Shown here: positions 4,042 to 20,554 of the stretch, in pieces
Layout: the number at the start of each line of letters is the position of its first letter
Numbering within the stretch: the stretch's first letter is position 1
Source: a virus
Taxonomy: Duplodnaviria; Caudoviricetes
IMG/VR virus record: IMGVR_UViG_3300036797_000125
Location: 1 to 27,650 of that record
DNA length: 27,650 nt
Strand: one strand, 5' to 3'
The notes under the pieces: model-generated
Told to the model about the DNA's origin: nothing
What the model saw: the letters and a program-made list of their open reading frames with translations, nothing else
Databases searched by the model: none
Made by a program: the position numbers and the translations under genes

Positions 4042-4548
4042 ATGACAAAACGATTATCTTTCGAAGAGGTGCAAGCGAAATTCAAAGAACGGGGATATAG
4101 ATTACTAGAAACGGAATATAAAAACGCTCAAACTAAAATGCGTTATATATGCCCGAAACATCCAAATGATCCGCAGACAATTCGGTTTAAAAGTTTAAAA
4201 AGAGGTTCTGGTTGTCTATTGTGCGGAAAAGAGAAAACGAAAAGATCGCGTGAAATTAACGGTTTAATAGGAGTCGCTAAACGCGAATATCCGAAAGAGG
4301 AAGTAAAGGCAGCTCGTTACAAAGCGGAGGACTTATTAAACGAGTACTGTATGTCCTGTCCGTTTAATAGTTTAACGAGCGTTGAGGACGTACAGAAACA
4401 TTGTTATAAAGAGTGTCCGTATGAAATCGGATTAGAACTACGTAAGTGCGGCGCAATTATGGCCGGTGAGGATGTCGATGCTGTAACGGAGCATTATGTA
4501 GTCAAGCATACGCTTGAACGTATTGATCGTAATGAGGCGACGGTATAA
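4042..4548 (+). CDS. Cys-rich zinc-finger phage protein
   Basis: CPKH...GCLLC and YCMSC...HCYKECPYEIGLELRKCG; GGAGGG RBS before ATG 4042. Confidence 0.7.
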   Translation: MTKRLSFEEVQAKFKERGYRLLETEYKNAQTKMRYICPKHPNDPQTIRFKSLKRGSGCLLCGKEKTKRSREINGLIGVAKREYPKEEVKAARYKAEDLLNEYCMSCPFNSLTSVEDVQKHCYKECPYEIGLELRKCGAIMAGEDVDAVTEHYVVKHTLERIDRNEATV

Positions 4549-5312
4549 TGCAATGCATTCTATCCGATCACTGTTCGTTATACAAAAGCGAATCATGTAA
4601 CCGTCAGTGCACATCGTACATCGCACTACACGGATTCAACGGTAATGGAGGACGTATGGTAGCGACCAACTTACCGAAAGAATACCGTCATTTAACGTTA
4701 CTAAATTCGCCTGTAAAGGACACACAACCGAAAGTCTATAAATCTATCGAAGCATATGTAACGACCTTTATGCGACAGTTTGAGGGAAATGAGGCAACGG
4801 ATGTAAAAGATAAGATCAAATCGATGTATCTGTTTTCCGAAGAAACTGGCACGGGGAAAACGACGACGGCATCCGTAATTTTAAACGAGTGGCTCATACG
4901 GCATTACATCGGAAGTTTGCAACGAAATAGGCAATCGTTGCAGGTACCGGCGTTCTTTCTAGACGTCAATTATTTTCAAACGTTATTCAACGAATTCAAT
5001 CGGTCAAACATACCGAAAGAAGTCGCGGAGAAATCGGCAAAGGAATACTATCGTCGCATGAGTAACGCGAAGACGGCTCCTTTCGCAGTACTAGACGATA
5101 TTGGAGTTCGTAGTGCAACCGAAGCATTTCGAGGGGATTTACATGCGGTGATTAACCATCGAGTAACGAACGGATTACCTACGGTTTACACTTCAAACAT
5201 TCCTATCGAAGAGTTGGAAGGTGTGTTTGATCGTAGGTTGTACGATAGAGTTCGAGATTTGTGCGTAGTGCTACCGTTCGAGGGCGAGTCGAAAAGGGGG
5301 ATGCGGAAATAA
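4548..5312 (+). CDS. DnaC/IstB-like ATPase (helicase loader)
   Basis: Walker A TGTGKTT, Walker B AVLDDIG, PTVYTSN, RLYDRVR; N-terminal Cys cluster. Confidence 0.9.
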   Translation: MQCILSDHCSLYKSESCNRQCTSYIALHGFNGNGGRMVATNLPKEYRHLTLLNSPVKDTQPKVYKSIEAYVTTFMRQFEGNEATDVKDKIKSMYLFSEETGTGKTTTASVILNEWLIRHYIGSLQRNRQSLQVPAFFLDVNYFQTLFNEFNRSNIPKEVAEKSAKEYYRRMSNAKTAPFAVLDDIGVRSATEAFRGDLHAVINHRVTNGLPTVYTSNIPIEELEGVFDRRLYDRVRDLCVVLPFEGESKRGMRK

Positions 5313-5430
5313 AAAATGACCGCTCCTTTTATCAGAACGGCCGTACAAGTATCCATATGTTGGAGGTCATCACAAATGGCTTAAGGCGTCTTCTCTAAGC
5401 AGTATGGACAATGATTTTTACGATTATACA
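5311..5430 (-). ncRNA. Putative sRNA unit 1 (SigG-like promoter, anti-SD segment, terminator)
   Basis: Minus strand TGTATA(5430-5425)-N18-CATACT(5406-5401); hairpin plus U6 at 5344-5311; plus strand contains GGAGGTCATCACAAATGGCT. Confidence 0.55.
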
Positions 5431-5432
5431 TT

Positions 5433-5565
5433 AAAACGGTGAGTAACCAAATAGGCTACCCGCTACGTCCCTGCATGATACGGAGGAGAAACCCCGTTTT
5501 GAAAGAGTGAAGTCGAAGGGAGATCGGCTCAAAGATAGTATGCGCAAAACAAAAACGATTATTCA
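5433..5565 (-). ncRNA. Putative sRNA unit 2 (SigG consensus promoter)
   Basis: Minus TGAATA(5565-5560)-N17-CATACTA(5542-5536); imperfect hairpin ~5437-5464 followed by a U-tract; plus strand GGAGGAGAAACCCCGTTTTG. Confidence 0.55.
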
Positions 5566-5582
5566 AAAGGGAGAATACGAAA

Positions 5583-5741
5583 ATGAAGAAACTTATTATC
5601 GGTGCATTTCTATATTTACCGTTAGCTTTCTGGCTTAGTTATTTTTGCGGAATCAGTACGGTTGAAGTGCTCGCAACAATGTTTATTGTCGGAGTTACCG
5701 GCGGGATCTACAACGTAGTATTGGAAGAAGCGGAAAAGTAG
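5583..5741 (+). CDS. Small membrane protein, 52 aa, two hydrophobic segments
   Basis: MKKLIIGAFLYLPLAFWLSYFCGISTVEVLATMFIVGVTGGIYNVVLEEAEK; AAGGGAG RBS. Confidence 0.7.
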   Translation: MKKLIIGAFLYLPLAFWLSYFCGISTVEVLATMFIVGVTGGIYNVVLEEAEK

Positions 5742-5794
5742 GTATGTGAAGTAAGACCAAATTTGAATTTTGTTAAGAAATGGAGAGATGGAAA

Positions 5795-6049
5795 ATGAGA
5801 AAAGTGGAAATTACAGTAGAAGAAAGAATTAAGAGGAAAATATCTTATGATTTTATCTTGCCAGAGCATGTATCCGAAAGTCAGATGAATATCATAATTG
5901 CCCGTGTAGAAAGTCGTTCGGATTGTGCTGATGATGTTGTACATTTGTTGCAAAAAGAAATACCTAGTTTGAAAGTGCAAAAAGTAGAAGAAACAGACTT
6001 GAATTTTGATGATGCTGAAATAATTGGTTATGACATAAAAGAAAACTAA
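5795..6049 (+). CDS. Hypothetical phage protein
   Basis: ORF after GGAGAG RBS, bounded by junction palindromes at 5757 and 6051. Confidence 0.7.
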   Translation: MRKVEITVEERIKRKISYDFILPEHVSESQMNIIIARVESRSDCADDVVHLLQKEIPSLKVQKVEETDLNFDDAEIIGYDIKEN

Positions 6050-6086
6050 ACCAAAGCGTTATTTGAATCGAAAAGGAGAATGAGAG

Positions 6087-6437
6087 ATGGAAAATAGTGA
6101 AATTAACAATTTAATTGCAGAAAAAGTAATGGGATGGCATTTACAAAAAATGAAACATGTAGCAGCTTGGATTGATGAAAATAGTAACTGGACTTTAAAA
6201 CAAATATGGAACCCTTCGAATGATATCCGAGATGCATGGCAAGTTGTAGAGAAAATGAGAAAGGATTATGATTTTTGGTTCGAGTTAACTACACCAGAAT
6301 CATTTTCTTTAAAAACAAAATGTTATTTCCAATTAGATGATATTGATGTAAGTGCTGTCTGTGAAATTGCGCCATTGGCTATCTGTAAGGCTGCATTACT
6401 AGCGATTGAAGCGAAAAATAAAAACTTAACAAAATAG
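6087..6437 (+). CDS. Phage ABA-sandwich (BC1872-like) protein
   Basis: LIAEKVMGW...WNPSNDIRDAWQVVEKMR...APLAICKAAL; AAAGGAG RBS. Confidence 0.75.
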   Translation: MENSEINNLIAEKVMGWHLQKMKHVAAWIDENSNWTLKQIWNPSNDIRDAWQVVEKMRKDYDFWFELTTPESFSLKTKCYFQLDDIDVSAVCEIAPLAICKAALLAIEAKNKNLTK

Positions 6438-6462
6438 TTATTTTGCAGAAAGGATGTATCGC

Positions 6463-6670
6463 AATGAGTAGTGCATGTATATGTCACATTGATCAAAATA
6501 AATGTTTGTGGTGTAAGAAAAATATATATTTCAGTACATTTTCTCAAGGCGTAGCTATTAATTTTCCGAATGGGCGGATAACGATGTTGCATACAAGGGA
6601 TATGACGAAGGCTCGTGATTTAGCTGAGATTCTAAAAGAAACCGTTGTAAATATCGAGGAATTAAATTAA
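6463..6670 (+). CDS. Small Cys-containing hypothetical protein
   Basis: GAAAGGA RBS before ATG 6463; CxC...CxxC. Confidence 0.65.
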
Positions 6671-6690
6671 ACAAAATTCTTATTTTAAAT

Positions 6691-6804
6691 AAAAAGAGCG
6701 CTTTTAAAAGCGCTCGTTGACCAAGAATTGTATTGAAAAAAGTACTCAATGAATAATACTGAGATGATCATGAGTATTGTATGTAAATTTCTAATGTATG
6801 TGCA
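6691..6804 (-). ncRNA. Putative sRNA unit 3 (SigK consensus promoter)
   Basis: Minus AC(6801-6800)-N16-CATACAATA; perfect palindrome GAGCGCTTTTAAAAGCGCTC followed by U5. Confidence 0.5.
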
Positions 6805-6839
6805 GCTTTTAAGTGGAATTTTTATTTCATAGCAAATAC

Positions 6840-6939
6840 AAAAGAGCACACATATAAGCGTGCTCTTCGATAAAAAAGGAGAACCCTATGAGTGGAAGGT
6901 CTTCATAAAATAACATATGTTTGTCCGGTTTAAAGGTGA
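6840..6939 (-). ncRNA. Putative sRNA unit 4 (SigK consensus promoter)
   Basis: Minus AC(6937-6936)-N16-CATATGTTA; stem AAGAGCAC/GTGCTCTT; plus strand AAGGAGAACCCTATGAGTGG. Confidence 0.55.
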
Positions 6940-7035
6940 CAAGTTTTAATAAAATCTTTATTTTAAAAAGCGAACGAAAAACATCACTGGATCCAATGAA
7001 AGTTCGTGATTTAATACAAAATCGTTATTTCATAG

Positions 7036-7137
7036 AAAAAAAGAGCACACATATAAGCATGCTCTTAGATAATTAAGGTTGGTTTTATGAGTGGCTAATC
7101 CCATGCAATAACATATACTTGTTCGGTAAAAAGGTGA
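7036..7137 (-). ncRNA. Putative sRNA unit 5, paralog of unit 4
   Basis: Near-identical terminator and promoter (AC-N16-TATATGTTA); diverged middle AAGGTTGGTTTTATGAGTGG. Confidence 0.5.
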
Positions 7138-7167
7138 AAAAATTTTGACGAAATCGTTATTTAAATG

Positions 7168-7280
7168 AAAAGACAACAAACGGAGGGGTTTGCTGCCTTG
7201 GTAAAAAGGAATGGCACTAAGTATAAATTACAGAGGTAACTGGTTAGTTAAAGTATATGTATTATATATAAAAATATCAC
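7168..7280 (-). ncRNA. Putative sRNA unit 6 (SigE-like promoter)
   Basis: Minus TGATATT...CATATACT with slightly short spacing; stem AAGACAACAAAC/GTTTGCTGCCTT whose mismatches are G-U pairs only on the minus strand. Confidence 0.45.
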
Positions 7281-7333
7281 CAAACCAAGGTGAGGATTAT
7301 TAAACACAAACGCTATTTTAGTAGAAAACATTT

Positions 7334-7438
7334 AAAAGGCCCTGTTTTTTAGACAGGACCTTAAAAAAGGGAATGACTGTTAACAACTGAAGGTACCTTT
7401 ATATTACCATTATTGGAACTCTAATTCCATATGTCGAA
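7334..7438 (-). ncRNA. Putative sRNA unit 7 (Spo0A box plus extended -10)
   Basis: TGTCGAA at 7432-7438; minus TGgTAATAT at 7409-7401; stem AAGGCCCTGT/ACAGGACCTT; plus strand AAAGGGAATGACT. Confidence 0.4.
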
Positions 7439-7466
7439 TGTTGAGAAATAAAAACTTCATTTGGCA

Positions 7467-7589
7467 CAACAAAGTAGCCAGCTTAATTAGCTAACCACTT
7501 GTTGTACAAAAGAAAATTAGGCCCTACAAGTAATGATGTGTAACCTTAAGTTACAGTTGTAGTGTAAACAAGATTGGAAAAGTTATACG
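7467..7589 (-). ncRNA. Putative sRNA unit 8 (degenerate SigG-like promoter)
   Basis: Minus GTATA(7588-7584)-N17-TACACTA; hairpin related to the AGCAGCTAGC...AGCTAACTGCT type seen in units 9 and 10. Confidence 0.4.
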
Positions 7590-7622
7590 GAAGTGAACTT
7601 AATAAAAACTTCATTTTAGTAG

Positions 7623-7657
7623 AAAAAGATAGGTTTCCTTATTAGGGAAACCTGTCC
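7623..7657 (-). terminator. Intrinsic terminator of the DUF4183-like gene
   Basis: GATAGGTTTCC-ttattag-GGAAACCTGTC stem with A5 on its left (U-tract on minus). Confidence 0.7.
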
Positions 7658-7666
7658 AAAAATAGA

Positions 7667-7954
7667 TTAAGTTACAATAAACTCGACTGTAACTGGAGTC
7701 GCTGGATCAAGTACATCTCCACCAGGGATGGTAATTGAAGAAGGGCCAACAGTAATAGTTGAGGTATCGCCTACTTGAAGTATGCCATTGATGTAGAGAT
7801 TATAATATGTGAACGAATTTGGGAATGTTGAAGTTCCACCTGTATCATTAGTGAAAGCTGTAGCAACAATCGCAAACGTAGCACCTGTACCTGTACCCGC
7901 AGATATTGTAGAAATAAATCTTCTGGAGGCTATAAACGGTGGTATTATTGCCAT
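7667..7954 (-). CDS. DUF4183-like small protein (spore-surface association inferred)
   Basis: AFTNDTG...YYNLYINGILQ...TPVTVEF pattern; GAGGTG RBS; own terminator; opposite to phage orientation. Confidence 0.75.
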   Translation of the reverse strand: MAIIPPFIASRRFISTISAGTGTGATFAIVATAFTNDTGGTSTFPNSFTYYNLYINGILQVGDTSTITVGPSSITIPGGDVLDPATPVTVEFIVT

Positions 7955-8159
7955 TTATAATTCACCTCTTTCTTATTTTTACTAGAACTAGTTTGTAAGA
8001 AAACTTGTTCTGTATTGTATTCTATGAAGTTCTTTAATATTAGAAGCGGCTTATGAACTGGTGCATAAGTGTAAATATCAATTTAGACATATTGTTGTTA
8101 AATAAGGATGACTATGTACAAAAATTTCATTTTGTATAGAAGTGAGGTGAAAAACAAGC

Positions 8160-8327
8160 ATGTTAACTTGGATAACAATTGGTGTCCTTATTTATTTGAT
8201 AATCGGATTAGGATTATTAGTTTGGTCAGTGACTACTTCTTCCTGGGGAGGAATCATATTGTGTTTTGCGATTCCAATTATTTTCTTCTGGCCTTACTTC
8301 ATTATCAGAAGTTTATTCGATAGATAA
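8160..8327 (+). CDS. Small membrane protein, 55 aa
   Basis: MLTWITIGVLIYLIIGLGLLVWSVTTSSWGGIILCFAIPIIFFWPYFIIRSLFDR; GAGGTG RBS. Better supported than the tracked 8108 frame. Confidence 0.7.
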   Translation: MLTWITIGVLIYLIIGLGLLVWSVTTSSWGGIILCFAIPIIFFWPYFIIRSLFDR

Positions 8328-8430
8328 AAGAGCAGCTAGCAAAAGCTAACTGCTCTCCAGAAAAGCATTAAGAAGGAAGTTCAGAACTCAAGTGTATTTA
8401 TAGTATGGACAAGATTTAGAAATTTATTCG
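8326..8430 (-). ncRNA. Putative sRNA unit 9 (SigG consensus promoter)
   Basis: Minus GAATA(8429-8425)-N17-CATACTA(8407-8401); terminator GAGCAGCTAGC-aaaa-GCTAACTGCTC. Confidence 0.55.
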
Positions 8431-8444
8431 AGGAGGAACGGATA

Positions 8445-8531
8445 ATGTGCACTTATTGGGAAAACGCAGTTAAAGAATTCTTCAAGAAGCAAGAGCAGGA
8501 ACGGAATAAAAGAGCAGCTAGCAAAAGCTAA
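8445..8531 (+). CDS. 28-aa mini-protein
   Basis: GAGGAGG RBS; MCTYWENAVKEFFKKQEQERNKRAASKS. Confidence 0.5.
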   Translation: MCTYWENAVKEFFKKQEQERNKRAASKS

Positions 8532-8601
8532 CTGCTCACCTAATGGAGGTCTTGTCTCAACTAGGTGTCTATAGTATTGACGGAATGTTGATTTTTATTC
8601 A
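8508..8601 (-). ncRNA. Putative sRNA unit 10 (SigG-like promoter)
   Basis: Minus TGAATA(8601-8596)-N17-AATACTA; same terminator as unit 9; plus strand ATGGAGGTCTTG. Confidence 0.55.
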
Positions 8602-8611
8602 GGGGGTAGAG

Positions 8612-8725
8612 ATGAAAAAGTTTATTGAGCTAGTAAATCATTACTATATTGAACCTGCTAAAGAAAAAGGGTTTTGGATTACATTCATAATTGTAGCGAG
8701 CAATATGTATTGGATTAATAAATGA
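8612..8725 (+). CDS. Small hypothetical protein, 37 aa
   Basis: AGGGGG RBS before ATG 8612. Confidence 0.5.
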   Translation: MKKFIELVNHYYIEPAKEKGFWITFIIVASNMYWINK

Positions 8726-8769
8726 GTTTTAAAACAAATAATCCTTTTAGAAGAAAGCGAGGCTAAACA

Positions 8770-9054
8770 ATGACTGCATACCCAACGAAAGAACAAGAAA
8801 CGGTATTAACTTTCGACAACGAAACGAAGGAATGGAGCGCATACTCTTGTGTTCCTAAACACATTCGTAAACTAGTAGAGATAGTCGGAGCGGAAAACGT
8901 TACAGTTATCGAAAAGGATGACGACTCTATCTTAGCGGTGAAATGTACGTTACAAGAAAAGCAAGTAAGTATGAAAAAAGTACGTCAGTATAGCGAGGAT
9001 CAGAAACGTAAGATGGCGGAAAGAATGCGAGCGGTTCGTGGTGTTGTGGATTGA
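8770..9054 (+). CDS. Hypothetical phage protein
   Basis: 94-aa ORF with GAGG RBS; EQETVLTFD...WSAYSCVPKHIRKL. Confidence 0.75.
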   Translation: MTAYPTKEQETVLTFDNETKEWSAYSCVPKHIRKLVEIVGAENVTVIEKDDDSILAVKCTLQEKQVSMKKVRQYSEDQKRKMAERMRAVRGVVD

Positions 9055-9178
9055 CTAATATATTCGTTTTAAAAATAGGATAAATACAAAACTGCAATTT
9101 TTCATTAAACTCTTAAGTACAAACGCTCTTTGACAACCGAATAAAAATCGCTCAAAAAACAAAATGGAGGTGTATTTA

Positions 9179-10522
9179 ATGAACTACGGAGAAATGCTTT
9201 TATCGAAAGTGGTAGATACCGCTAACCCTGTTCAACTTAACCATGTAACAGAACGTGACTTTGTTACAGCTTCGGAAAAGAAAGCGTACCGTTTTATCAA
9301 AGATTACGTAGAAACTAATCGAGGGAAAACGCCCGACTTTCGCACGCTAGTAGCAGAAGTCGACGGCTTCACATACGTCCCAAATGTCGAGGATAGTTTC
9401 GAGTATTTAACGAAACAAATCAAGTCTTATAGCGCTAAAATCGAAGTGATGGAACTCTTACAGAACGAAGCGCCTACCCAATTTGAGGAAAAAGACGGAA
9501 ATAGTTTCCTAGAATGGTTGCGAGAAAAAGTAGACGGAGTTATAATTAGAACAAACGTTCGAGGTAAGGTCGGAACAAGCTTAAAAGCCGATGCAAACAA
9601 GTTTCTCGAAGAATATGATCGCAGGAAAAAAGGCGAGTCATATCGCATTTGGAACAGTCGTTTTCCATTCATTAATAAAGCGATTGGTGGCTACGTTTCT
9701 TCGAACATCTACACGATCTACGGAAAGTCAGGGCGTGGTAAATCCGCAACGACTATCGAAGAAGGCGTAGAGATGGCGTTTCAAGGTGCGAACGTACTAA
9801 TCTGGCTAATGGAAATGGGTTGGTTCGAAGGGATGGTTCGTTTATATACTTCGATTTCTTCTCGTATCGGTGCGACTGTAGCCGAATTAGATGGCGTAAA
9901 TCTAGAAGCGGGATTCGATTCGAAAGAAATCCGTCACGGTAAGTTATCGGAGGAATTCGAAGAAGGATTCAAAACGTTTTTAGCAAACATTAACGATATT
10001 TTACCTGGTAACATAATTGTACGAGGCGTAGATGACGACGACTTTCATCGAAGGGATTTACGTCAATTAGAAGTAGACATTACGGAAACGAACGCAGATG
10101 TCGTTATAGTCGATCCGTTCTATTATCTCGATTATGAGAAAAATACGTCCAAAACAGCCGGTGGAGATGCTGCCGAAACATCGAAAGGATTACGTCGATT
10201 AGCAGGTAAGACAGGCGTAGTAATGTTCGCTATCACACAAGCGGATGAAGTCGATAATAATGAAGACGAAGATGGTCAGAGGGAATTACGCTTACCGAAA
10301 CGTAGTGAAGTAAAGAAAACGAAAGCGCTTTTGGAGGATGCGGCGCTATTGATAGCAGTAGATACTGACTCCAAACAAGGACGTGGCATGATCGGTATAA
10401 ACAAAGGACGAGATGGTGGCGAAGGTGAATCTGCCGAAATCATTTACATGCCACAGATTGGCGTAATTAAAGAAATGGAAACCGGCGAACAGGCAGCAAA
10501 ACAATTTACGAGTGTATTCTAG
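9179..10522 (+). CDS. DnaB-like replicative helicase
   Basis: Walker A YGKSGRGKS, LMEM, VVIVDPFY, AITQA, KGRDG; GGAGGTG RBS before ATG 9179. Confidence 0.92.
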   Translation: MNYGEMLLSKVVDTANPVQLNHVTERDFVTASEKKAYRFIKDYVETNRGKTPDFRTLVAEVDGFTYVPNVEDSFEYLTKQIKSYSAKIEVMELLQNEAPTQFEEKDGNSFLEWLREKVDGVIIRTNVRGKVGTSLKADANKFLEEYDRRKKGESYRIWNSRFPFINKAIGGYVSSNIYTIYGKSGRGKSATTIEEGVEMAFQGANVLIWLMEMGWFEGMVRLYTSISSRIGATVAELDGVNLEAGFDSKEIRHGKLSEEFEEGFKTFLANINDILPGNIIVRGVDDDDFHRRDLRQLEVDITETNADVVIVDPFYYLDYEKNTSKTAGGDAAETSKGLRRLAGKTGVVMFAITQADEVDNNEDEDGQRELRLPKRSEVKKTKALLEDAALLIAVDTDSKQGRGMIGINKGRDGGEGESAEIIYMPQIGVIKEMETGEQAAKQFTSVF

Positions 10523-10534
10523 GAGGGCGTTCAA

Positions 10535-11551
10535 ATGGCAACAATAAAGATTCGTGGACAAGACGTAAACGTAGACATCGAATATGAGTTACGGCAACAT
10601 CACTGGACTAATGAACGGTGGTCATCCGATAAGCTGATTGCAGCCAGTCCACTTCGGTATGAGCACACGCCGAGTTTCTTCGTCAACTTAGACGGAGATT
10701 ACGCCGGCACATGGAAAGATTCAGGTGCGTTTGATGCAGAATGGGAAAGCGGCAACTTTACCAGATTGTTATCTTATTTACGAAATGAAACGTATGAAGA
10801 AACAGAAGATTATCTTTTGGAATCGTATGGCACTAGTTACACTTACGACAACCTCGTACTCAAGCCACCGAAACTCCGGATTGATACCGGTCGCAAGGCC
10901 CTCGATTTTGGTCGGTTGCAAGAGTACGCATATAGGCATCTGTATTTAGGCGAACGAGGTATAAGCGAAGAGGTACAACGGCAAATGAAAATAGGTTACG
11001 ACCGCTTTAGGCAGGCGGTTGTAATCCCGTGGTTTGATACTAACGGAAGATTGGCGAATATTAAGTATCGGAAAACGCGCGGCAAAGCATTCTGGTACGA
11101 AAAGGACGGAAAGCCAATTGGAGATTTGATATACGGGCTACATCTTGCTTATAAACGGAATATTAAACGGGCAGTATATTGTGAGGCGGAAATAGATGCG
11201 ATGTCGTTTATGACGGCTGGGGTTTTCGGATTGGCAAACGGAGGATCATCGTTTAATCAACGTAAGGCAGATCAATTATTAAAGTCGCCGATAGAGGAAT
11301 TGGTTATCGTGGCAGATAATGACCCGGCAGGCGAGAAACTTCGGAAAGAACTTGAGAAATATTTAAACGGTAAAATACGGTTGACAAACGGTTATGTACC
11401 TGGATATAAGGACGCAAATGAGGCGTTGGTAAAAGAAGGCGTAACTTCGTTGATATCTGTAGTTGATAATGCGGAGCCAGTTCGATTAAAATTAATATAC
11501 GTGAATTCACGTAGTGACGGTCGGAGGGAAGATACGATACCTTCCCGGTAA
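10535..11551 (+). CDS. DNA primase (TOPRIM)
   Basis: CEAEIDAMS, VADNDPAG, YKDANE motifs; follows the helicase. Confidence 0.9.
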   Translation: MATIKIRGQDVNVDIEYELRQHHWTNERWSSDKLIAASPLRYEHTPSFFVNLDGDYAGTWKDSGAFDAEWESGNFTRLLSYLRNETYEETEDYLLESYGTSYTYDNLVLKPPKLRIDTGRKALDFGRLQEYAYRHLYLGERGISEEVQRQMKIGYDRFRQAVVIPWFDTNGRLANIKYRKTRGKAFWYEKDGKPIGDLIYGLHLAYKRNIKRAVYCEAEIDAMSFMTAGVFGLANGGSSFNQRKADQLLKSPIEELVIVADNDPAGEKLRKELEKYLNGKIRLTNGYVPGYKDANEALVKEGVTSLISVVDNAEPVRLKLIYVNSRSDGRREDTIPSR

Positions 11552-12127: not shown

Positions 12128-13345
12128 GTGCCGGGGTTTCATAGAGAGATATGCGATATTATTAATGATAGAGACGATATAACATTTACAGCAGTTAGTG
12201 AGAGAATCGAAGCGTCAAAACAATGTATGTCTAAATTTAAAAAGGATGGAACCATAGGGTTTAGAAAGCTTTTGAGACTCTCCTATTACCTATTCCCTGA
12301 TAATCAGGCGGATAAGATGTCTAAATGGTGCCTACAGTTAGATTCGGCAGAGTCTATTCAGCAAAGTTTAGAATACGCAGCGATTACTAGGAATGTTGAT
12401 CTACTTAAGAAACTAATAACAAAGCATAAAAAAGAAGATGGTGTAATTAAGGATTATATAAATGTATACCGTATTCTATACAAGTACATGGTAGATGAAA
12501 TAGAGGGGTTTGATCTTATTGATGAGCTACGTAAAATAGGTCAAATAGAGGATAGTACCTTAGTGATTTTAGTGAATATTATGAAATGTTATACATATTA
12601 CTTCGAAAGAAAGTTTCATTTGATGTTAGAAGTTGCAAAAGAGGCTGAACAAATGATCTTCGATTTAAGTGATGCGAGAAAACTATTTATTAAAGAATGC
12701 TACTTACATAGATTAGCAGAAATATTAGCACCTATATATTTGTTCCAAAATCAATTAGATTTAGCTAGACATTATTCTTTTTTAATAACTAATGCTAATA
12801 TCTGCGCGAAAACCGTTTCAGATGCGTCATACTATATAGGGATGTCGTACTTATTAGAAGATATTGATAAATGTTTGGAGTATCTTCTAAAGAGTCACGA
12901 TATCGCCAAGACTATCGGAGAAGAGTATTTCGAAACGGAAACAAGATATAATTTGGACTATGTGAATGTTTACTTAGGTAAACCTCTAGGGTTAAAATCC
13001 GACCCAAGATTAATCATGTATCAGAATAATAGGTTAAACGGGAAGTTAATTGATGATATAGTAGAAGAAAGGGGAGAAAGAGATTTTTTATTAATGTATC
13101 AAGCACTTAATCAAAACTCACTTCCAAAATTATACGAATGTTTTCAAAAGTTTTTTTCGAATTCAAATTTCTTTTTCTCCGGGTTAGTCGCAAAGGAAAT
13201 CTATGAACGAGGAGATCGTTCTATGATGACCCAAACGTTGATTAATTTTAAATCTAATAACGAAAATGGAGATGTTCAATTTGAAAAAAATTATATTAGG
13301 TGTTTTAGCAACTTTGACTTTAGCGATGGGAGTTTTTGCGCTTAA
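12128..13345 (+). CDS. aimR: Arbitrium peptide receptor AimR (HTH plus TPR, RRNPP family)
   Basis: ~400 aa, N-terminal HTH, SLEYA motif, helical TPR-like body, immediately followed by a secreted-peptide gene. Confidence 0.88.
   Translation: MPGFHREICDIINDRDDITFTAVSERIEASKQCMSKFKKDGTIGFRKLLRLSYYLFPDNQADKMSKWCLQLDSAESIQQSLEYAAITRNVDLLKKLITKHKKEDGVIKDYINVYRILYKYMVDEIEGFDLIDELRKIGQIEDSTLVILVNIMKCYTYYFERKFHLMLEVAKEAEQMIFDLSDARKLFIKECYLHRLAEILAPIYLFQNQLDLARHYSFLITNANICAKTVSDASYYIGMSYLLEDIDKCLEYLLKSHDIAKTIGEEYFETETRYNLDYVNVYLGKPLGLKSDPRLIMYQNNRLNGKLIDDIVEERGERDFLLMYQALNQNSLPKLYECFQKFFSNSNFFFSGLVAKEIYERGDRSMMTQTLINFKSNNENGDVQFEKNYIRCFSNFDFSDGSFCA
12803..12831 (+). promoter_or_regulatory. Bipartite motif copy 2, inside aimR
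   Basis: TGCGCG-aaaaccgtttcaga-TGCGTCATA with N14 spacing. Confidence 0.5.
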
Positions 13346-13409
13346 TGGAGTACAAGACGGTAATGGTAAGTTTCAACAAAGTGCAGCAGAGACAAAACCA
13401 GGCGGTTAA
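13281..13409 (+). CDS. aimP: Arbitrium pro-peptide AimP, 42 aa; predicted mature peptide ETKPGG
   Basis: GGAG RBS, TTG start; MKKIILGVLATLTLAMGVFALNGVQDGNGKFQQSAAETKPGG has a signal peptide and a short C-terminal peptide after AA. Confidence 0.88.
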   Translation: MKKIILGVLATLTLAMGVFALNGVQDGNGKFQQSAAETKPGG

Positions 13410-13432
13410 TAAAACAAAATAAGATTTAATTT

Positions 13433-13462
13433 AAGGGCGGTCTTATTGATCGCTCTTTTTTT
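13433..13462 (+). terminator. Intrinsic terminator after aimP
   Basis: AAGGGCGGTC-ttatt-GATCGCTCTT followed by a T-tract. Confidence 0.8.
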
Positions 13463-13654: not shown

Positions 13655-14299
13655 GTGAAAGACGAACAAAAATTGAATATTAACAAGATGGCAAACGATT
13701 ATCTTCGAACAGGTGACGATTTCGTATTTACGGATTTGTACACTAGTTTATCGGAGGTATATCGGGACAAGCTTCGGTATTGGAGCACGAGTACATACAT
13801 GGCAACAGAACACGACATAACCGGATTGTTCCACGATGTAATACAGAAGGTACTGAATAGCTTGCGAAATAACGCTGGCGGCGATTTCGTGAAACTATTC
13901 GTAGTATCACTAGGTAACGAATACAAATCACTATTACGAAAGTTACGTACCAGACGAAAGTACGAATTATATGACGGACATGATAACGATGATGACTCGA
14001 ACACGGCAATGTTCGAAACTCTCAAAGATGAATTCGATTTAGAGGAACACGTTATAAAAAAGAAAGAAGCCGACCAGCGTGAGCTAATCGACTTCCTTAC
14101 AGACCCGGCTAAGGTCAGTGACGAGACAACGACGGCGATCGTTGAAACGTTTATTACGAATGATGGACCAACAACTCCGACGGCAATCGGAAAGAAGTTA
14201 GGCCTTCATCATTCTACGGTAATTCGCAAGATCGAGCGCTTGGCAAAGCGTTTCGATGAAAGACAATTCGGTAATTACCGAGATTATCTTCTTGCGTAA
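13655..14299 (+). CDS. Phage sigma70/ECF-like transcription factor
   Basis: Region-2-like FTDLY...HDITGLFHDVIQKV...DFVKLF...NEYKSLLRK; C-terminal HTH TPTAIGKKLGLHHSTVIRKIERL. Confidence 0.7.
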   Translation: MKDEQKLNINKMANDYLRTGDDFVFTDLYTSLSEVYRDKLRYWSTSTYMATEHDITGLFHDVIQKVLNSLRNNAGGDFVKLFVVSLGNEYKSLLRKLRTRRKYELYDGHDNDDDSNTAMFETLKDEFDLEEHVIKKKEADQRELIDFLTDPAKVSDETTTAIVETFITNDGPTTPTAIGKKLGLHHSTVIRKIERLAKRFDERQFGNYRDYLLA

Positions 14300-18050: not shown

Positions 18051-20231
18051 GTGACGCCGAAATTAACGTTGAACTTAAAGATACCGAGTAAGACGGACAG
18101 GCAAGCCGTTGAAAATAGGGTAGCAAAAGCGGTCGAGCGTAAGGTAAAGGCGACCGAAACGATGGAAGACGCGTGGCAACGGATTCTATCAATGAAGAAC
18201 AGTGAGTCTGATAGGCAGAGACTTGTGGAAGTAAAAGAAGCGATGACGAAGGGCGAAATTGGTCGTAGCCCTTCCGACCTCGCTAAACGTTTTAGTAAGG
18301 CGGAAGCTTTGCGATTATGGAAAGTTCTACATGAGCGAAAACGAGACGATAAGATACGTGAAATGGTGTTGGCTACACCGGACAATTACATATTAGTTAC
18401 CGATGGCAAGGTACTAAAGCAAATGTTAGATGGTATAAAAACGTCTGATTTAATCGGATTTGACTGTGAAACTTTCGGAGAGGAAAACGGAGCATTAGAC
18501 CCGTGGAAAGGTGATGTAGCAGGCTTTTCGATATCGACGAGAAATCACAACTATTATGTACCGTTGAATCACGAAGAAGGCTCGAATTTAAGTGAAGCCG
18601 TTTTATTACAATACGTTAAACCTGTGTTAGAGCAAGTGAAAACCGTAATGCACAACGCACCTTTCGATTGTAAATGGTTTATGCAGCGTTACGGAATTAA
18701 CTTAATCGATAACTTACATGCAGATACACGGATAATGGCGATGGCGTTAGATGAAAATCGAAACCACCGACTAAAGGATTTGATAACGGATTGGTTGTGT
18801 CAGCCAAGCGATAATTTTGATGAATTATTCGGTAAAACTCCGTTTAATAAGATTCCGTTAGATGTAGCGTTAGTTTACGCAGCGGGCGATACGGAGAAAA
18901 CTTTAAAACTGTACGATTGGATTATGGAATGGTTTGACAAACGAGAGGATTTACAAGAAATTAAGTCGCTCGTTTTTAATATAGAGATGTCGGTATGTAG
19001 ACAATTTATTAAGTCGGATTTGATTGGTATCAACTTCGATGAAGAGAAAGCAAATGTATTAGACGAACAACTGGCTAAAGAGGAAGCGGAAATACAGCGT
19101 GAGATATACGAATTATTTGATGAAGAAATTAACTTAGGTTCACCGGTTCAATTGAAGAAAAAGTTATTCGTAGATTTAAAGTTACCCGATATAGAAAACG
19201 GATCAACTGGCGTAAAAGCATTGAAGAAGTTGAAAGGGAAACATCCCGTAATTTCTAAGATTCTCGATTATAGAGGCGTCAGCAAACTACGCGAAGCATT
19301 TACGCAGAAGTTACCGAAAGAAATCAAATATGATAATAAGATTCATCCGTGGCATAACACGTACGGAGCGGCGACAGGACGGTTCACATGCAAATCGCCA
19401 AACACCCAGCAAATACCCGCAAAGCGTCCTGAAATACGCCGCCTGTTTACATCGAGTGCAGGTAAAATACTCGTTTCTATAGATTACTCGCAAATTGAAT
19501 TACGCGTATTAGCGCATATGGCCAAAGAACCGGAACTAATCAAGGCGTTCAAAGAAGGCCGCGACATTCACTCGACTACAGCAGCGATGATTAGTAACGG
19601 TAAATACACGTATGAGGATATCGAATCAAATAAAGATACAGACGGTTCGCCTGAGCAGAAATCTCGTAAGCAAGCTAAGGTGGTTAACTTTGGTATTGTA
19701 TACGGAATGAGCGACAAAGGATTAGCTGATACGTTAGGTATTACGAGAACCGAAGCGCAAACAATTATTGATAACTACTTCAAAGGTTACAAAGGAATTC
19801 AACAATATATGGACGAGCAGAAACTGTTGGCCCGTAAGCAGGGTTACATTACGGATATTTTCGGTAGGAAACGTCGGTTACACACCGAGTATAAGTCGAA
19901 AGACCGTTTCTTACATTTCCGTGCGGATCGTATGGCCGGTAACTTTCCGATACAAGCGTCAGCCGGTTCAATTTTAAAGAAAGCTATCGTAGATTTACAG
20001 GCAGTTTTATCGAAACATAACGTAGATATTTTACTCCAGGTACATGATGAATTGTTATTCGAGTGTCCGAGAGGTATTTCGAAGGAAGCACTATTCGAAT
20101 TGAAAACTACGATGGAAAACGCAGTTAAATTATTAGTTCCTGTCAGATGTGACGTTGAGATAAATCCAGAACGATGGTTAGAGAAAGTAAGTATTGAAGT
20201 ATGGTTTAACGAAGAGGAGGAAACGGAATGA
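18051..20231 (+). CDS. polA: Family A DNA polymerase with 3'-5' exonuclease domain
   Basis: Exo FDCET, HNAPFD, YAAGD; pol ATGRF, DYSQIELR, KVVNFGIVYG, QVHDEL. Confidence 0.96.
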   Translation: MTPKLTLNLKIPSKTDRQAVENRVAKAVERKVKATETMEDAWQRILSMKNSESDRQRLVEVKEAMTKGEIGRSPSDLAKRFSKAEALRLWKVLHERKRDDKIREMVLATPDNYILVTDGKVLKQMLDGIKTSDLIGFDCETFGEENGALDPWKGDVAGFSISTRNHNYYVPLNHEEGSNLSEAVLLQYVKPVLEQVKTVMHNAPFDCKWFMQRYGINLIDNLHADTRIMAMALDENRNHRLKDLITDWLCQPSDNFDELFGKTPFNKIPLDVALVYAAGDTEKTLKLYDWIMEWFDKREDLQEIKSLVFNIEMSVCRQFIKSDLIGINFDEEKANVLDEQLAKEEAEIQREIYELFDEEINLGSPVQLKKKLFVDLKLPDIENGSTGVKALKKLKGKHPVISKILDYRGVSKLREAFTQKLPKEIKYDNKIHPWHNTYGAATGRFTCKSPNTQQIPAKRPEIRRLFTSSAGKILVSIDYSQIELRVLAHMAKEPELIKAFKEGRDIHSTTAAMISNGKYTYEDIESNKDTDGSPEQKSRKQAKVVNFGIVYGMSDKGLADTLGITRTEAQTIIDNYFKGYKGIQQYMDEQKLLARKQGYITDIFGRKRRLHTEYKSKDRFLHFRADRMAGNFPIQASAGSILKKAIVDLQAVLSKHNVDILLQVHDELLFECPRGISKEALFELKTTMENAVKLLVPVRCDVEINPERWLEKVSIEVWFNEEEETE

Positions 20232-20554
20232 AAGTAATTACGAAACAAATAGAGATAACGGAAGAGATAGCAGACAATTTATTCGAGGATTGTGGCTTTA
20301 TCCATGAAGGAATCAATTACGAATTTGTCAAGGAGACTGACGAGGATATGGACGACAATGGTAAAACGTATTCGTACATTGTTAAAGAAGAAGGTACGAA
20401 TCATTACTACAGTATTGACGTTTATCTAGTGAGATATGGATACGAAGATTATGGGTTTGAAAAATATGTACAAGACCACAAAATGTATCGCGTTGAATTA
20501 AAAACATTAACTACAGAAACATGGGTATGCATTAAGGAGGAATCAAATGACTAA
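20228..20554 (+). CDS. Hypothetical acidic phage protein
   Basis: ATGA overlap with polA; GGAGG RBS. Confidence 0.75.
   Translation: MKVITKQIEITEEIADNLFEDCGFIHEGINYEFVKETDEDMDDNGKTYSYIVKEEGTNHYYSIDVYLVRYGYEDYGFEKYVQDHKMYRVELKTLTTETWVCIKEESND

Follow-up and report, generated by a model that had tools for sequence, protein, structure and literature searches.

Minus-strand micro-units and the words opposite them

The stretch analysed here, the 27,650-base provirus record IMGVR_UViG_3300036797_000125 (hereafter the window), carries a temperate-phage early and replication module on its plus strand, and its closest published relatives are phages of the Bacillus cereus group. Between 5310 and 8600 the minus strand is a chain of about ten micro-units (U1 to U10) and one small protein gene. 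The micro-units are laid out as promoter-like boxes, a 30–60-nt body and a terminator, and the boxes are of forespore type in five units, sigma-K-like or degenerate in three and sigma-A-like in two. A preliminary description of this DNA had reported that the middles of such units read, on the plus strand, like Shine-Dalgarno (SD) and start regions with no substantial open reading frame (ORF) behind them, and all eight words that it quoted are present there, no more than 2 nt from the positions claimed. The units are the following.

5310..5429, minus: U10, GTATA (5429-5425), 17 nt, CATACTG (5406-5400); predicted RNA about 5393-5310; terminator stem 5342-5318
5427..5564, minus: U9, GAATA-N17-CATACTA (5564-5536); predicted RNA about 5529-5427; bulged hairpin 5463-5437, then UUUU
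6689..6801, minus: U8, sigma-K-like AC-N17-CATACAATA (6801-6775); terminator 6715-6696; without an SD-like word
6834..6937, minus: U7 (K-type family), sigma-K-like AC-N16-CATATGTTA (6937-6911); terminator 6868-6841
7034..7137, minus: U6, a divergent U7 copy whose -10 box is degenerate (GTATATGTTA); terminator 7066-7041
7163..7280, minus: U5, sigma-A-like GTGATA-N17-TATACT (7280-7252); terminator 7199-7170 with a CCCCUC loop; CAUUCCUUUUU unpaired
7322..7437, minus: U4, sigma-A-like TCGACA-N17-AATAAT (7437-7409); terminator 7362-7333; carries CAUUCCCUUUUUU; fold z-score -1.8
7447..7588, minus: U3, GTATA-N17-TACACTA (7588-7560); 5′ hairpin GUAAC/GUUAC; without an SD-like word
8323..8429, minus: U2, GAATA-N17-CATACTA (8429-8401); predicted RNA about 8394-8323; 28-nt family terminator 8355-8330
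8505..8600, minus: U1, GAATA-N17-AATACTA (8600-8572); hairpin CCUAGU...AUUAGG around GACCUCCAU; 28-nt family terminator 8537-8512; fold z-score -5.8

Opposite them, the plus strand carries these words.

5362-5384, plus: U10 site, GGAGG 5362-5366, 9 nt, ATG 5376, GCT, TAA 5382-5384
5482-5489, plus: U9 site, GGAGGAGA
6876-6881, plus: U7 site, AAGGAG, with ATG 6888 (MSGRSS*)
7075-7078, plus: U6 site, AAGG, with ATG 7087 (MSG*)
about 7203, plus: U5 site, AAAAAGGAATG, with ATG 7211
about 7366, plus: U4 site, AAAGGGAATG, with ATG 7373 (MTVNN*)
8370-8379, plus: U2 site, AAGAAGGAAG, without a start codon nearby
8543-8549, plus: U1 site, ATGGAGG

Three of the words are weak: the one at 7076 consists of AAGG alone, and those at 7203 and 7366 have no gap between SD and ATG. 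A 30-codon frame starts from the ATG at 7211, and the ATG at 8543 shares its frame with a real gene beginning at 8612. On the minus strand the same words appear as pyrimidine-rich mirrors, as in U7, where UUCUCCUUUUUU mirrors both the AAGGAG at 6876-6881 and the ATG at 6888, and in U9, where UUUCUCCUCC sits in a small hairpin and mirrors the plus-strand GGAGGAGA. The SD/start words adjoin minus-strand intrinsic terminators: in the 30 nt of plus strand past 11 such terminators, an SD-like 5-mer occurs in 7 of 11 cases against a background of 0.18 (binomial P 0.0011) and an SD-like 4-mer in 8 of 11 against 0.35 (P 0.0115), with a motif set that was picked after inspection of the data. A 28-codon plus-strand ORF at 8445-8531 (MCTYWENAVKEFFKKQEQERNK...) runs from the promoter side of U2 to the terminator of U1, and its 3′ end recurs in several related loci directly ahead of the same hairpin.

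Several features indicate which strand the units would be read from. We counted nine terminator-like sites in 5200-9200, where shuffles give 2.1 ± 1.3; every one of the nine is on the minus strand, and the remaining window had no comparable excess (23 versus 14.2 ± 4.3). The 28-nt hairpin shared by U1 and U2 folds at -19.7 kcal/mol on the minus strand versus -13.8 kcal/mol on the plus strand, because a U·G pair becomes C·A. The terminators of the K-type family, U9 and U10 likewise vary through G·U pairs, which on the plus strand are A·C mismatches. The minus strand is thus favoured by the U-tracts, the G·U pairs, the hairpin energy and fixed -35 and -10 boxes with varying spacers. A separate motif, AAATA(A/G)CGNTTT (6053-7318, minus), recurs just past terminators, ahead of the next unit's -35 box, and is also found 5′ of the plus-strand genes at 6087 and 6464; it has 10 matches at up to one mismatch versus 3.6 ± 2.0 expected, a number reached by only 1 of 100 shuffles.

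The promoter-like boxes were assigned by their likeness to general sigma-factor consensus sequences. Five units (U1, U2, U3, U9 and U10) carry G(A/T)ATA-N17-(C/A/T)A(T/C)ACT(A/G), and the boxes of U7 and U8 read AC-N16/17-CATAnnnTA. A relaxed forespore pattern has four matches in the 27.65 kb, all of them on the minus strand within 5536-8600, and none on the plus strand; U10 is one letter off this pattern. Among distinct copies of the family hairpin, 159 of 223 have at least 10 of 12 consensus positions upstream. In the first set of copies the consensus lay upstream in 102 of 121, whereas the reverse complement gave 2 and shuffles gave 3 of 121, and the information content of these upstream regions peaks at the -35 and -10 boxes. 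Both boxes are invariant, with a variable spacer between them, in eight relatives of U10 and likewise in 30 homologues of the U3 family.

We used one complete B. thuringiensis genome (G001) as a host anchor. Its csfG gene (Rfam ylbH, 123.4 bits) is preceded by GTATA-N17-CATAAAT, and exact GAATA-N17/18-CATACTA occurs in it three times, twice adjoining prophage units and once 28 nt 5′ of fin. The boxes of the five window units resemble those ahead of host fin and csfG, a likeness of sequence only. According to excerpts of PMC5942855, fin is partly expressed under sigma-G.

Relatives of the unit families and the C-rich loops

The 28-nt terminator of U1 and U2 has an exact match in at least 122 viral stretches (we estimate about 330) and in 102 stretches of species-representative genomes; all 80 of those listed carry the name of a B. 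cereus-group species, ‘Bacillus sp.’, ‘Paenibacillus sp. 102’ or ‘Bacillaceae bacterium’. Between promoter and 28-nt terminator we found 123 distinct middles, which fall into 46 classes. The K-type family of U7 has 33 distinct homologues and the U3 family 30, both with their promoter boxes kept, and U5 has few relatives. Judging by these matches, three unit families are spread through hundreds of B. cereus-group prophages. The core GCAGUUAGC...GCUAGCUGC is common to the long hairpin of U3 (about 7507-7464; core 7464-7507) and the U1 and U2 terminators (8330-8355 and 8512-8537), and since the U3 hairpin holds this 28-nt terminator core the unit families would share terminator ancestry. The U10 terminator has no exact copy among viral contigs.

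The units lie in prophage early regions. In the B. thuringiensis genome the K-type and U3 families match only at 2.30-2.41 Mb, alongside that genome's hairpin units, and no chromosomal copies occur beyond this interval. U9 and U10 together form an insertion: the DnaC-like gene abuts the next plus-strand gene directly in about ten relatives, and the two units stand between them in eight others. In eight relatives of U10 the boxes GACCUCCA and CUUA(A/U)GCCAUUU are invariant, with 6–7 variable nt between them. The 28-nt terminator follows many unrelated plus-strand contexts; it comes directly after a plus-strand ORF of at least 30 codons in 36 of 162 contexts, and 64 of the 116 contexts that bear the promoter are followed within 45 nt by such an ORF. 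A selfish repeat of the MITE (miniature inverted-repeat transposable element) kind was considered and set aside, as flanking inverted repeats did not stand out, no dedicated search having been made.

Units of this kind are present in phages phBC6A51, IEBH, phi4B1 and BceA1. In published phage records the unit sites are unannotated or labelled hypothetical protein, and a literature search conducted on listings of papers returned nothing that describes them. The B. cereus-group phages were reviewed in 2014 (PMC4113786), and that review makes no mention of sRNA or small RNA, intergenic, non-coding, antisense or forespore. While collecting these records we observed that ‘Staphylococcus phage SpaA1’ (HE614281/NC_018277) has the same matches as Bacillus phage BceA1 (HE614282/NC_048628), 148 nt further along; the two records look like a near-identical phage under two host labels.

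The middles are pyrimidine-rich on the minus strand. Counted by class, the minus strand has more of the words than the other strand: CTCC 26 versus 12, TCCTT 9 versus 0 and CCCC 12 versus 3. A hairpin stands ahead of the terminator in 86 of 166 distinct 30-mers, with loops that are 49% C and 91% pyrimidine versus 34% and 79% in shuffles that still fold, and 68 of the 86 loops contain CCC, UCC or CCU. In the U2 class the 13-nt core AACUUCCUUCUUA (plus strand 8369-8381) is invariant across 14 variants with varying flanks, and the K-type family keeps SD and ATG in most of 35 rows, where the plus-strand frame runs for only 2–27 codons, differs between rows and encodes no conserved peptide. A strong SD 5-mer followed at 4–10 nt by an ATG is present in 9 of the 46 segment classes, which are derived from relatives and not independent, versus 2.7 ± 1.6 in shuffles, and none of 300 shuffles reached nine. 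When the ten predicted RNAs were folded, the CU-rich word stayed unpaired in U2, U5, U6 and U10. A similar pyrimidine-rich placement by the terminator is described, in the parts of PMC8216469 consulted, for the small RNAs (sRNAs) of B. subtilis with C-rich regions, namely RoxS, FsrA and CsfG.

Candidate targets and competing explanations

The preliminary description had further proposed that every unit may silence one particular spore or germination mRNA of the host, which our searches did not support. We looked for host targets with four segments in the complete B. thuringiensis genome, a genome other than that of the window's own host, and no extended complement was found for any of them. 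The 13-nt core at up to one mismatch had 23 matches versus 31 for the reversed control, with at most three at plausible gene starts; a 25-mer of the sigma-K-type unit matched only the unit itself; and two window 20-/21-mers had no match at up to three mismatches.

We also paired the 5′ parts of the ten window RNAs with 36 plus-strand start regions of the phage itself. Only two pairings stood out: U10 pairs with the primase start (10535) at -27.7 kcal/mol, a value reached by 5 of 700 shuffles, and U2 with the start of the ORF at 20547 at -24.1 kcal/mol, reached by 18 of 700; neither is significant after correction for ten RNAs. U10 alone exceeded every one of 314 start regions taken from other phages. 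We rejected this lead as a conserved relation: five of the six relatives that keep U10 have a different primase start, and in them the pairing falls to between -9.5 and -15.4 kcal/mol. A longest-shared-word test of the segment classes against 475 automatically called start regions was void, its top matches being other units taken as starts. With no conserved target in trans, a unit's only constant match is therefore its own plus-strand orphan SD/mini-ORF site.

At a rough probability of 45%, we favour the reading that these are sporulation-timed antisense RNA units that mirror orphan ribosome-binding sites of the phage itself and likely pair with them. The SD/start-like words would be the plus-strand mirror of pyrimidine-rich bodies in roughly ten promoter-to-terminator units of the minus strand, from which untranslated RNAs of 60–105 nt are predicted, mostly from sporulation-type promoters. 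We infer that the units are transcribed from the minus strand, that sigma-F/G and sigma-K read the boxes and that the RNAs base-pair with purine-rich ribosome-binding regions. The simplest targets would be the orphan SD/mini-ORF sites that the units overlap on the phage's own plus-strand early transcripts, in cis, with forespore and mother cell as the compartments in which this would happen; the RNAs may also act in trans on start regions rich in purines. A bolder version, which we consider rather unlikely, is that the units form a swappable library of compartment-specific anti-ribosome-binding-site RNAs, a viral counterpart of CsfG in which forespore and mother-cell cassettes, reversed within the early lytic operon, would silence that operon in both chambers so that the phage rides into the spore.

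A number of observations weigh against the antisense reading. The suggestion that the minus-strand RNAs expose anti-SD seeds next to the terminator survives in so far as pyrimidine-rich words do adjoin the terminator inside minus-strand promoter-to-terminator units, but their pairing with the SD consensus is no better than composition predicts: the duplex energy of 46 minus-strand segments is -8.18 kcal/mol versus -8.69 kcal/mol for dinucleotide shuffles, and because the shuffles pair as well, the anti-SD look follows from the C/U-rich composition. The CU-rich word is partly paired in U1, U7 and U9; in many G-type classes 9–12 nt separate the -10 box from the ATG complement, so that the complement lies at or before the predicted start; and the conserved SD-N9-ATG-codon-TAA of U10 is equally compatible with a plus-strand mini-ORF. 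Folding does not single out the minus strand in the variable parts. Whole segments fold better on the minus strand in 49 cases and on the plus strand in 66, with 8 equal, and the hairpins divide into 44 minus, 40 plus and 2 equal; for U9 and U10 the folds are no more stable than those of shuffles (z -0.89 and -1.39). RNAalifold on a MAFFT alignment of 46 second hairpins gave no consensus second hairpin and recovered only the invariant terminator, because the second-hairpin loop lengths misalign, and covariation in the second hairpin consists of individual examples and not a count. As to the promoters, a strict sigma-G pattern matched none of seven upstream regions of small acid-soluble spore protein (SASP) genes, of which three or four resemble it by eye; the exact GAATA-N17/18-CATACTA pattern is no commoner across the B. 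thuringiensis genome than its reversed control (3 versus 4); the boxes of U4 and U5 are sigma-A-like and not of sporulation type; and sigma-70-like sites in the region are at chance level (15 versus 14.7).

Some of these observations would be expected if the selected feature lay on the plus strand. Ribosomes would then bind to orphan SD sites and 2–27-codon mini-ORFs of the early polycistronic mRNA, for example to halt 5′-to-3′ decay that follows cleavage, in the manner of a STAB-SD, or to keep ribosomes loaded, and the minus-strand promoter look would be secondary. Across eight relatives of U10, GGAGG, ATG, a single codon and TAA are kept, as is the 9-nt spacing, whose letters vary; the SD and ATG kept in K-type rows, the excess of SD-plus-ATG classes and variable parts that fold no better on the minus strand also speak for this explanation. 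It leaves unexplained the conserved -35/-10 boxes with their 17-nt spacing in four unrelated unit families, all minus, as well as the terminator U-tracts and G·U pairs, and the purine core of class 0/U2 is kept without a nearby start codon; we regard this explanation as unlikely. The plus-strand orphan ribosome-binding sites may instead be the other half of the same device. More doubtful is the possibility that the RNAs are real and their SD likeness is a by-product of C/U-richness antisense to a purine-rich strand, so that they would act by transcriptional interference, by protein binding or as conserved recombination linkers between phage modules. The window's plus strand is 57% purine, real segments have no advantage over shuffles in pairing with the SD consensus, and one set of promoter and terminator blocks recurs beside many different genes. 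Against it stand invariant CU cores amid variable flanks, a loop C enrichment that exceeds composition, and the ATG complement kept in the K-type and U10 units.

The sRNA-like anatomy, the sporulation-type boxes and the C-rich words would also suit trans-acting repressors that each act on the start region of one particular host spore or germination mRNA, and 46 classes of middles could mean many targets; in the excerpts of PMC8216469 available, RoxS, FsrA and CsfG pair with SD regions through such words. Set against this are the four segments that lack an extended complement in a genome other than that of the window's host, the 13-nt core whose matches fall below those of the control and an SD-consensus complementarity accounted for by composition, and we judge repressors of this kind improbable. 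Least credible of all is that the words are functionless fossils of plus-strand gene starts at mosaic junctions. The plus strand of U10 does resemble the start of the primase-like gene at 10535, U2 resembles the start region of the ORF at 20547 over 14 bp, and U6 looks like a decaying copy of U7; but U9 and U10 are an inserted cassette and not a decayed gene, their boxes are invariant in eight relatives while adjacent letters vary, and no full-length gene with these starts was seen among the aligned relatives.

Known systems and neighbouring genes

The nearest known system in function is CsfG (Rfam ylbH motif, RF00516); we take the ylbH motif to be the sRNA gene csfG. At the corresponding locus of the B. 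thuringiensis genome (L310:2302-2481) the Rfam ‘ylbH leader’ model matches the ylbH strand, and a C-rich RNA with promoter and terminator reads the opposite strand, which fits the motif being csfG because promoter, terminator and C-rich RNA all read opposite ylbH. The host copy has the box pair GTATA-N17-CATAAAT, which the boxes of five units resemble in sequence, and the words UUCCUCC and UUUCUCCUCUCCC; U9 shares the 11-mer GGUUUCUCCUC with it. Unlike the units, CsfG is a single conserved chromosomal gene of about 140 nt beside ylbH, whereas the phage units are many, short, swappable and set against phage early genes. The RF00516 covariance model, which scores the host copy at 123.4 bits, had no match in 5200-8800 even at E ≤ 5 and none at the gathering score in the whole window, and alignment of the units with CsfG is not significant (U9 P 0.016 before correction for ten tests; 5 of 46 classes at P ≤ 0.05). 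Portions of PMC8216469 and PMC9147052 describe CsfG as a small RNA gene under sigma-F and sigma-G with C-rich regions and an intrinsic terminator, and present sporulation-controlled Bacillus small RNAs, CsfG among them, as lacking known targets. The behaviour of temperate phages during host sporulation is little understood, and a large phage-borne family of units with testable promoters and seeds would offer a handle on the roles of forespore and mother-cell sRNAs and on the quieting of prophages and their carriage into spores.

RoxS/RsaE and FsrA likewise carry C-rich words by the terminator, but in those sRNAs, on the evidence of the same sections of PMC8216469, the words are unpaired and pair with SD regions, whereas for the units such pairing is only proposed. 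The promoters of RoxS/RsaE and FsrA are not of sporulation type, and their genes are conserved chromosomal ones. Rfam 15 gave no match on the window at the gathering score and, in 5200-8800, seven chance-level matches at E ≤ 5, none of them RoxS/RsaE or FsrA.

Among phage systems, lambda OOP, P22 sar and P1/P7 c4 are short promoter-to-terminator RNAs directed against the phage's own early genes, and c4 blocks a ribosome-binding site. The units are like them by anatomy, as short terminated transcripts predicted opposite an early operon (nine terminators and four forespore-type boxes, all minus). They differ in that OOP, sar and c4 overlap or target one defined gene, whereas the units occupy gaps, where they overlap nothing but orphan SD/mini-ORF sites, come in arrays and have sporulation-type promoter boxes. 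Neither overlap with a defined phage gene start nor conserved complementarity to one was found for the units, the best match in trans, between U10 and the primase, not being conserved. A type I toxin-antitoxin antisense RNA was also considered and rejected: instead of overlapping a dedicated small toxin gene, the terminator follows many unrelated plus-strand contexts, only 36 of 162 directly after an ORF of at least 30 codons.

The PeSL cassettes of T4-type phages, reportedly described by Arbiol et al. in 2010, are said to be conserved promoter and stem-loop blocks at gene boundaries. They share with the units the arrangement of promoter-plus-hairpin blocks beside many different genes, but PeSLs are co-oriented with the genes that they serve, whereas the units run in the reverse direction and contain a short, predicted transcribed body. 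We rejected a cassette of this type for the units, whose promoter boxes and U-tracts read opposite the flanking genes. The STAB-SD of B. thuringiensis cry3A mRNA, attributed to Agaisse and Lereclus (1996), is reportedly an SD without a gene behind it in the 5′ leader, on the coding strand. It resembles the plus strand of the units as a gene-less SD in a B. cereus-group mRNA, a likeness that applies only if the selected feature is on the plus strand.

The units are embedded among the following genes of the window.

1-1131, minus: integrase
4548-5312, plus: DnaC-like loader
7954-7667 (span 7631..7954), minus: gene for a DUF4183 protein of 95 aa (PF13799, E 1.9e-14), with its own terminator at 7653-7631
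9164-10522, plus: DnaB-like helicase
10535-11551, plus: Toprim primase-like gene
12128-13345, plus: AimR
18051-20231, plus: family-A DNA polymerase

The DUF4183 gene stands among the RNA units in the same orientation as they do, is moron-like and is unnamed by NCBIfam and PHROGs. Further downstream, 12128-13457 is an arbitrium-type module, in which AimR is recognised by the NCBIfam equivalog model NF038310 (E 1.3e-85). The end of aimR is overlapped by a 47-codon ORF (13266-13409) that could be the peptide gene, and a plus-strand terminator (13433-13457) lies 3′ of AimR and this ORF. Finally, 13655-14299 is a 214-aa ORF with a weak, sub-cut-off resemblance to sigma factors of the sigma-70/extracytoplasmic function (ECF) type (TIGR02937, E 5.7e-4), and may encode a phage transcription factor.

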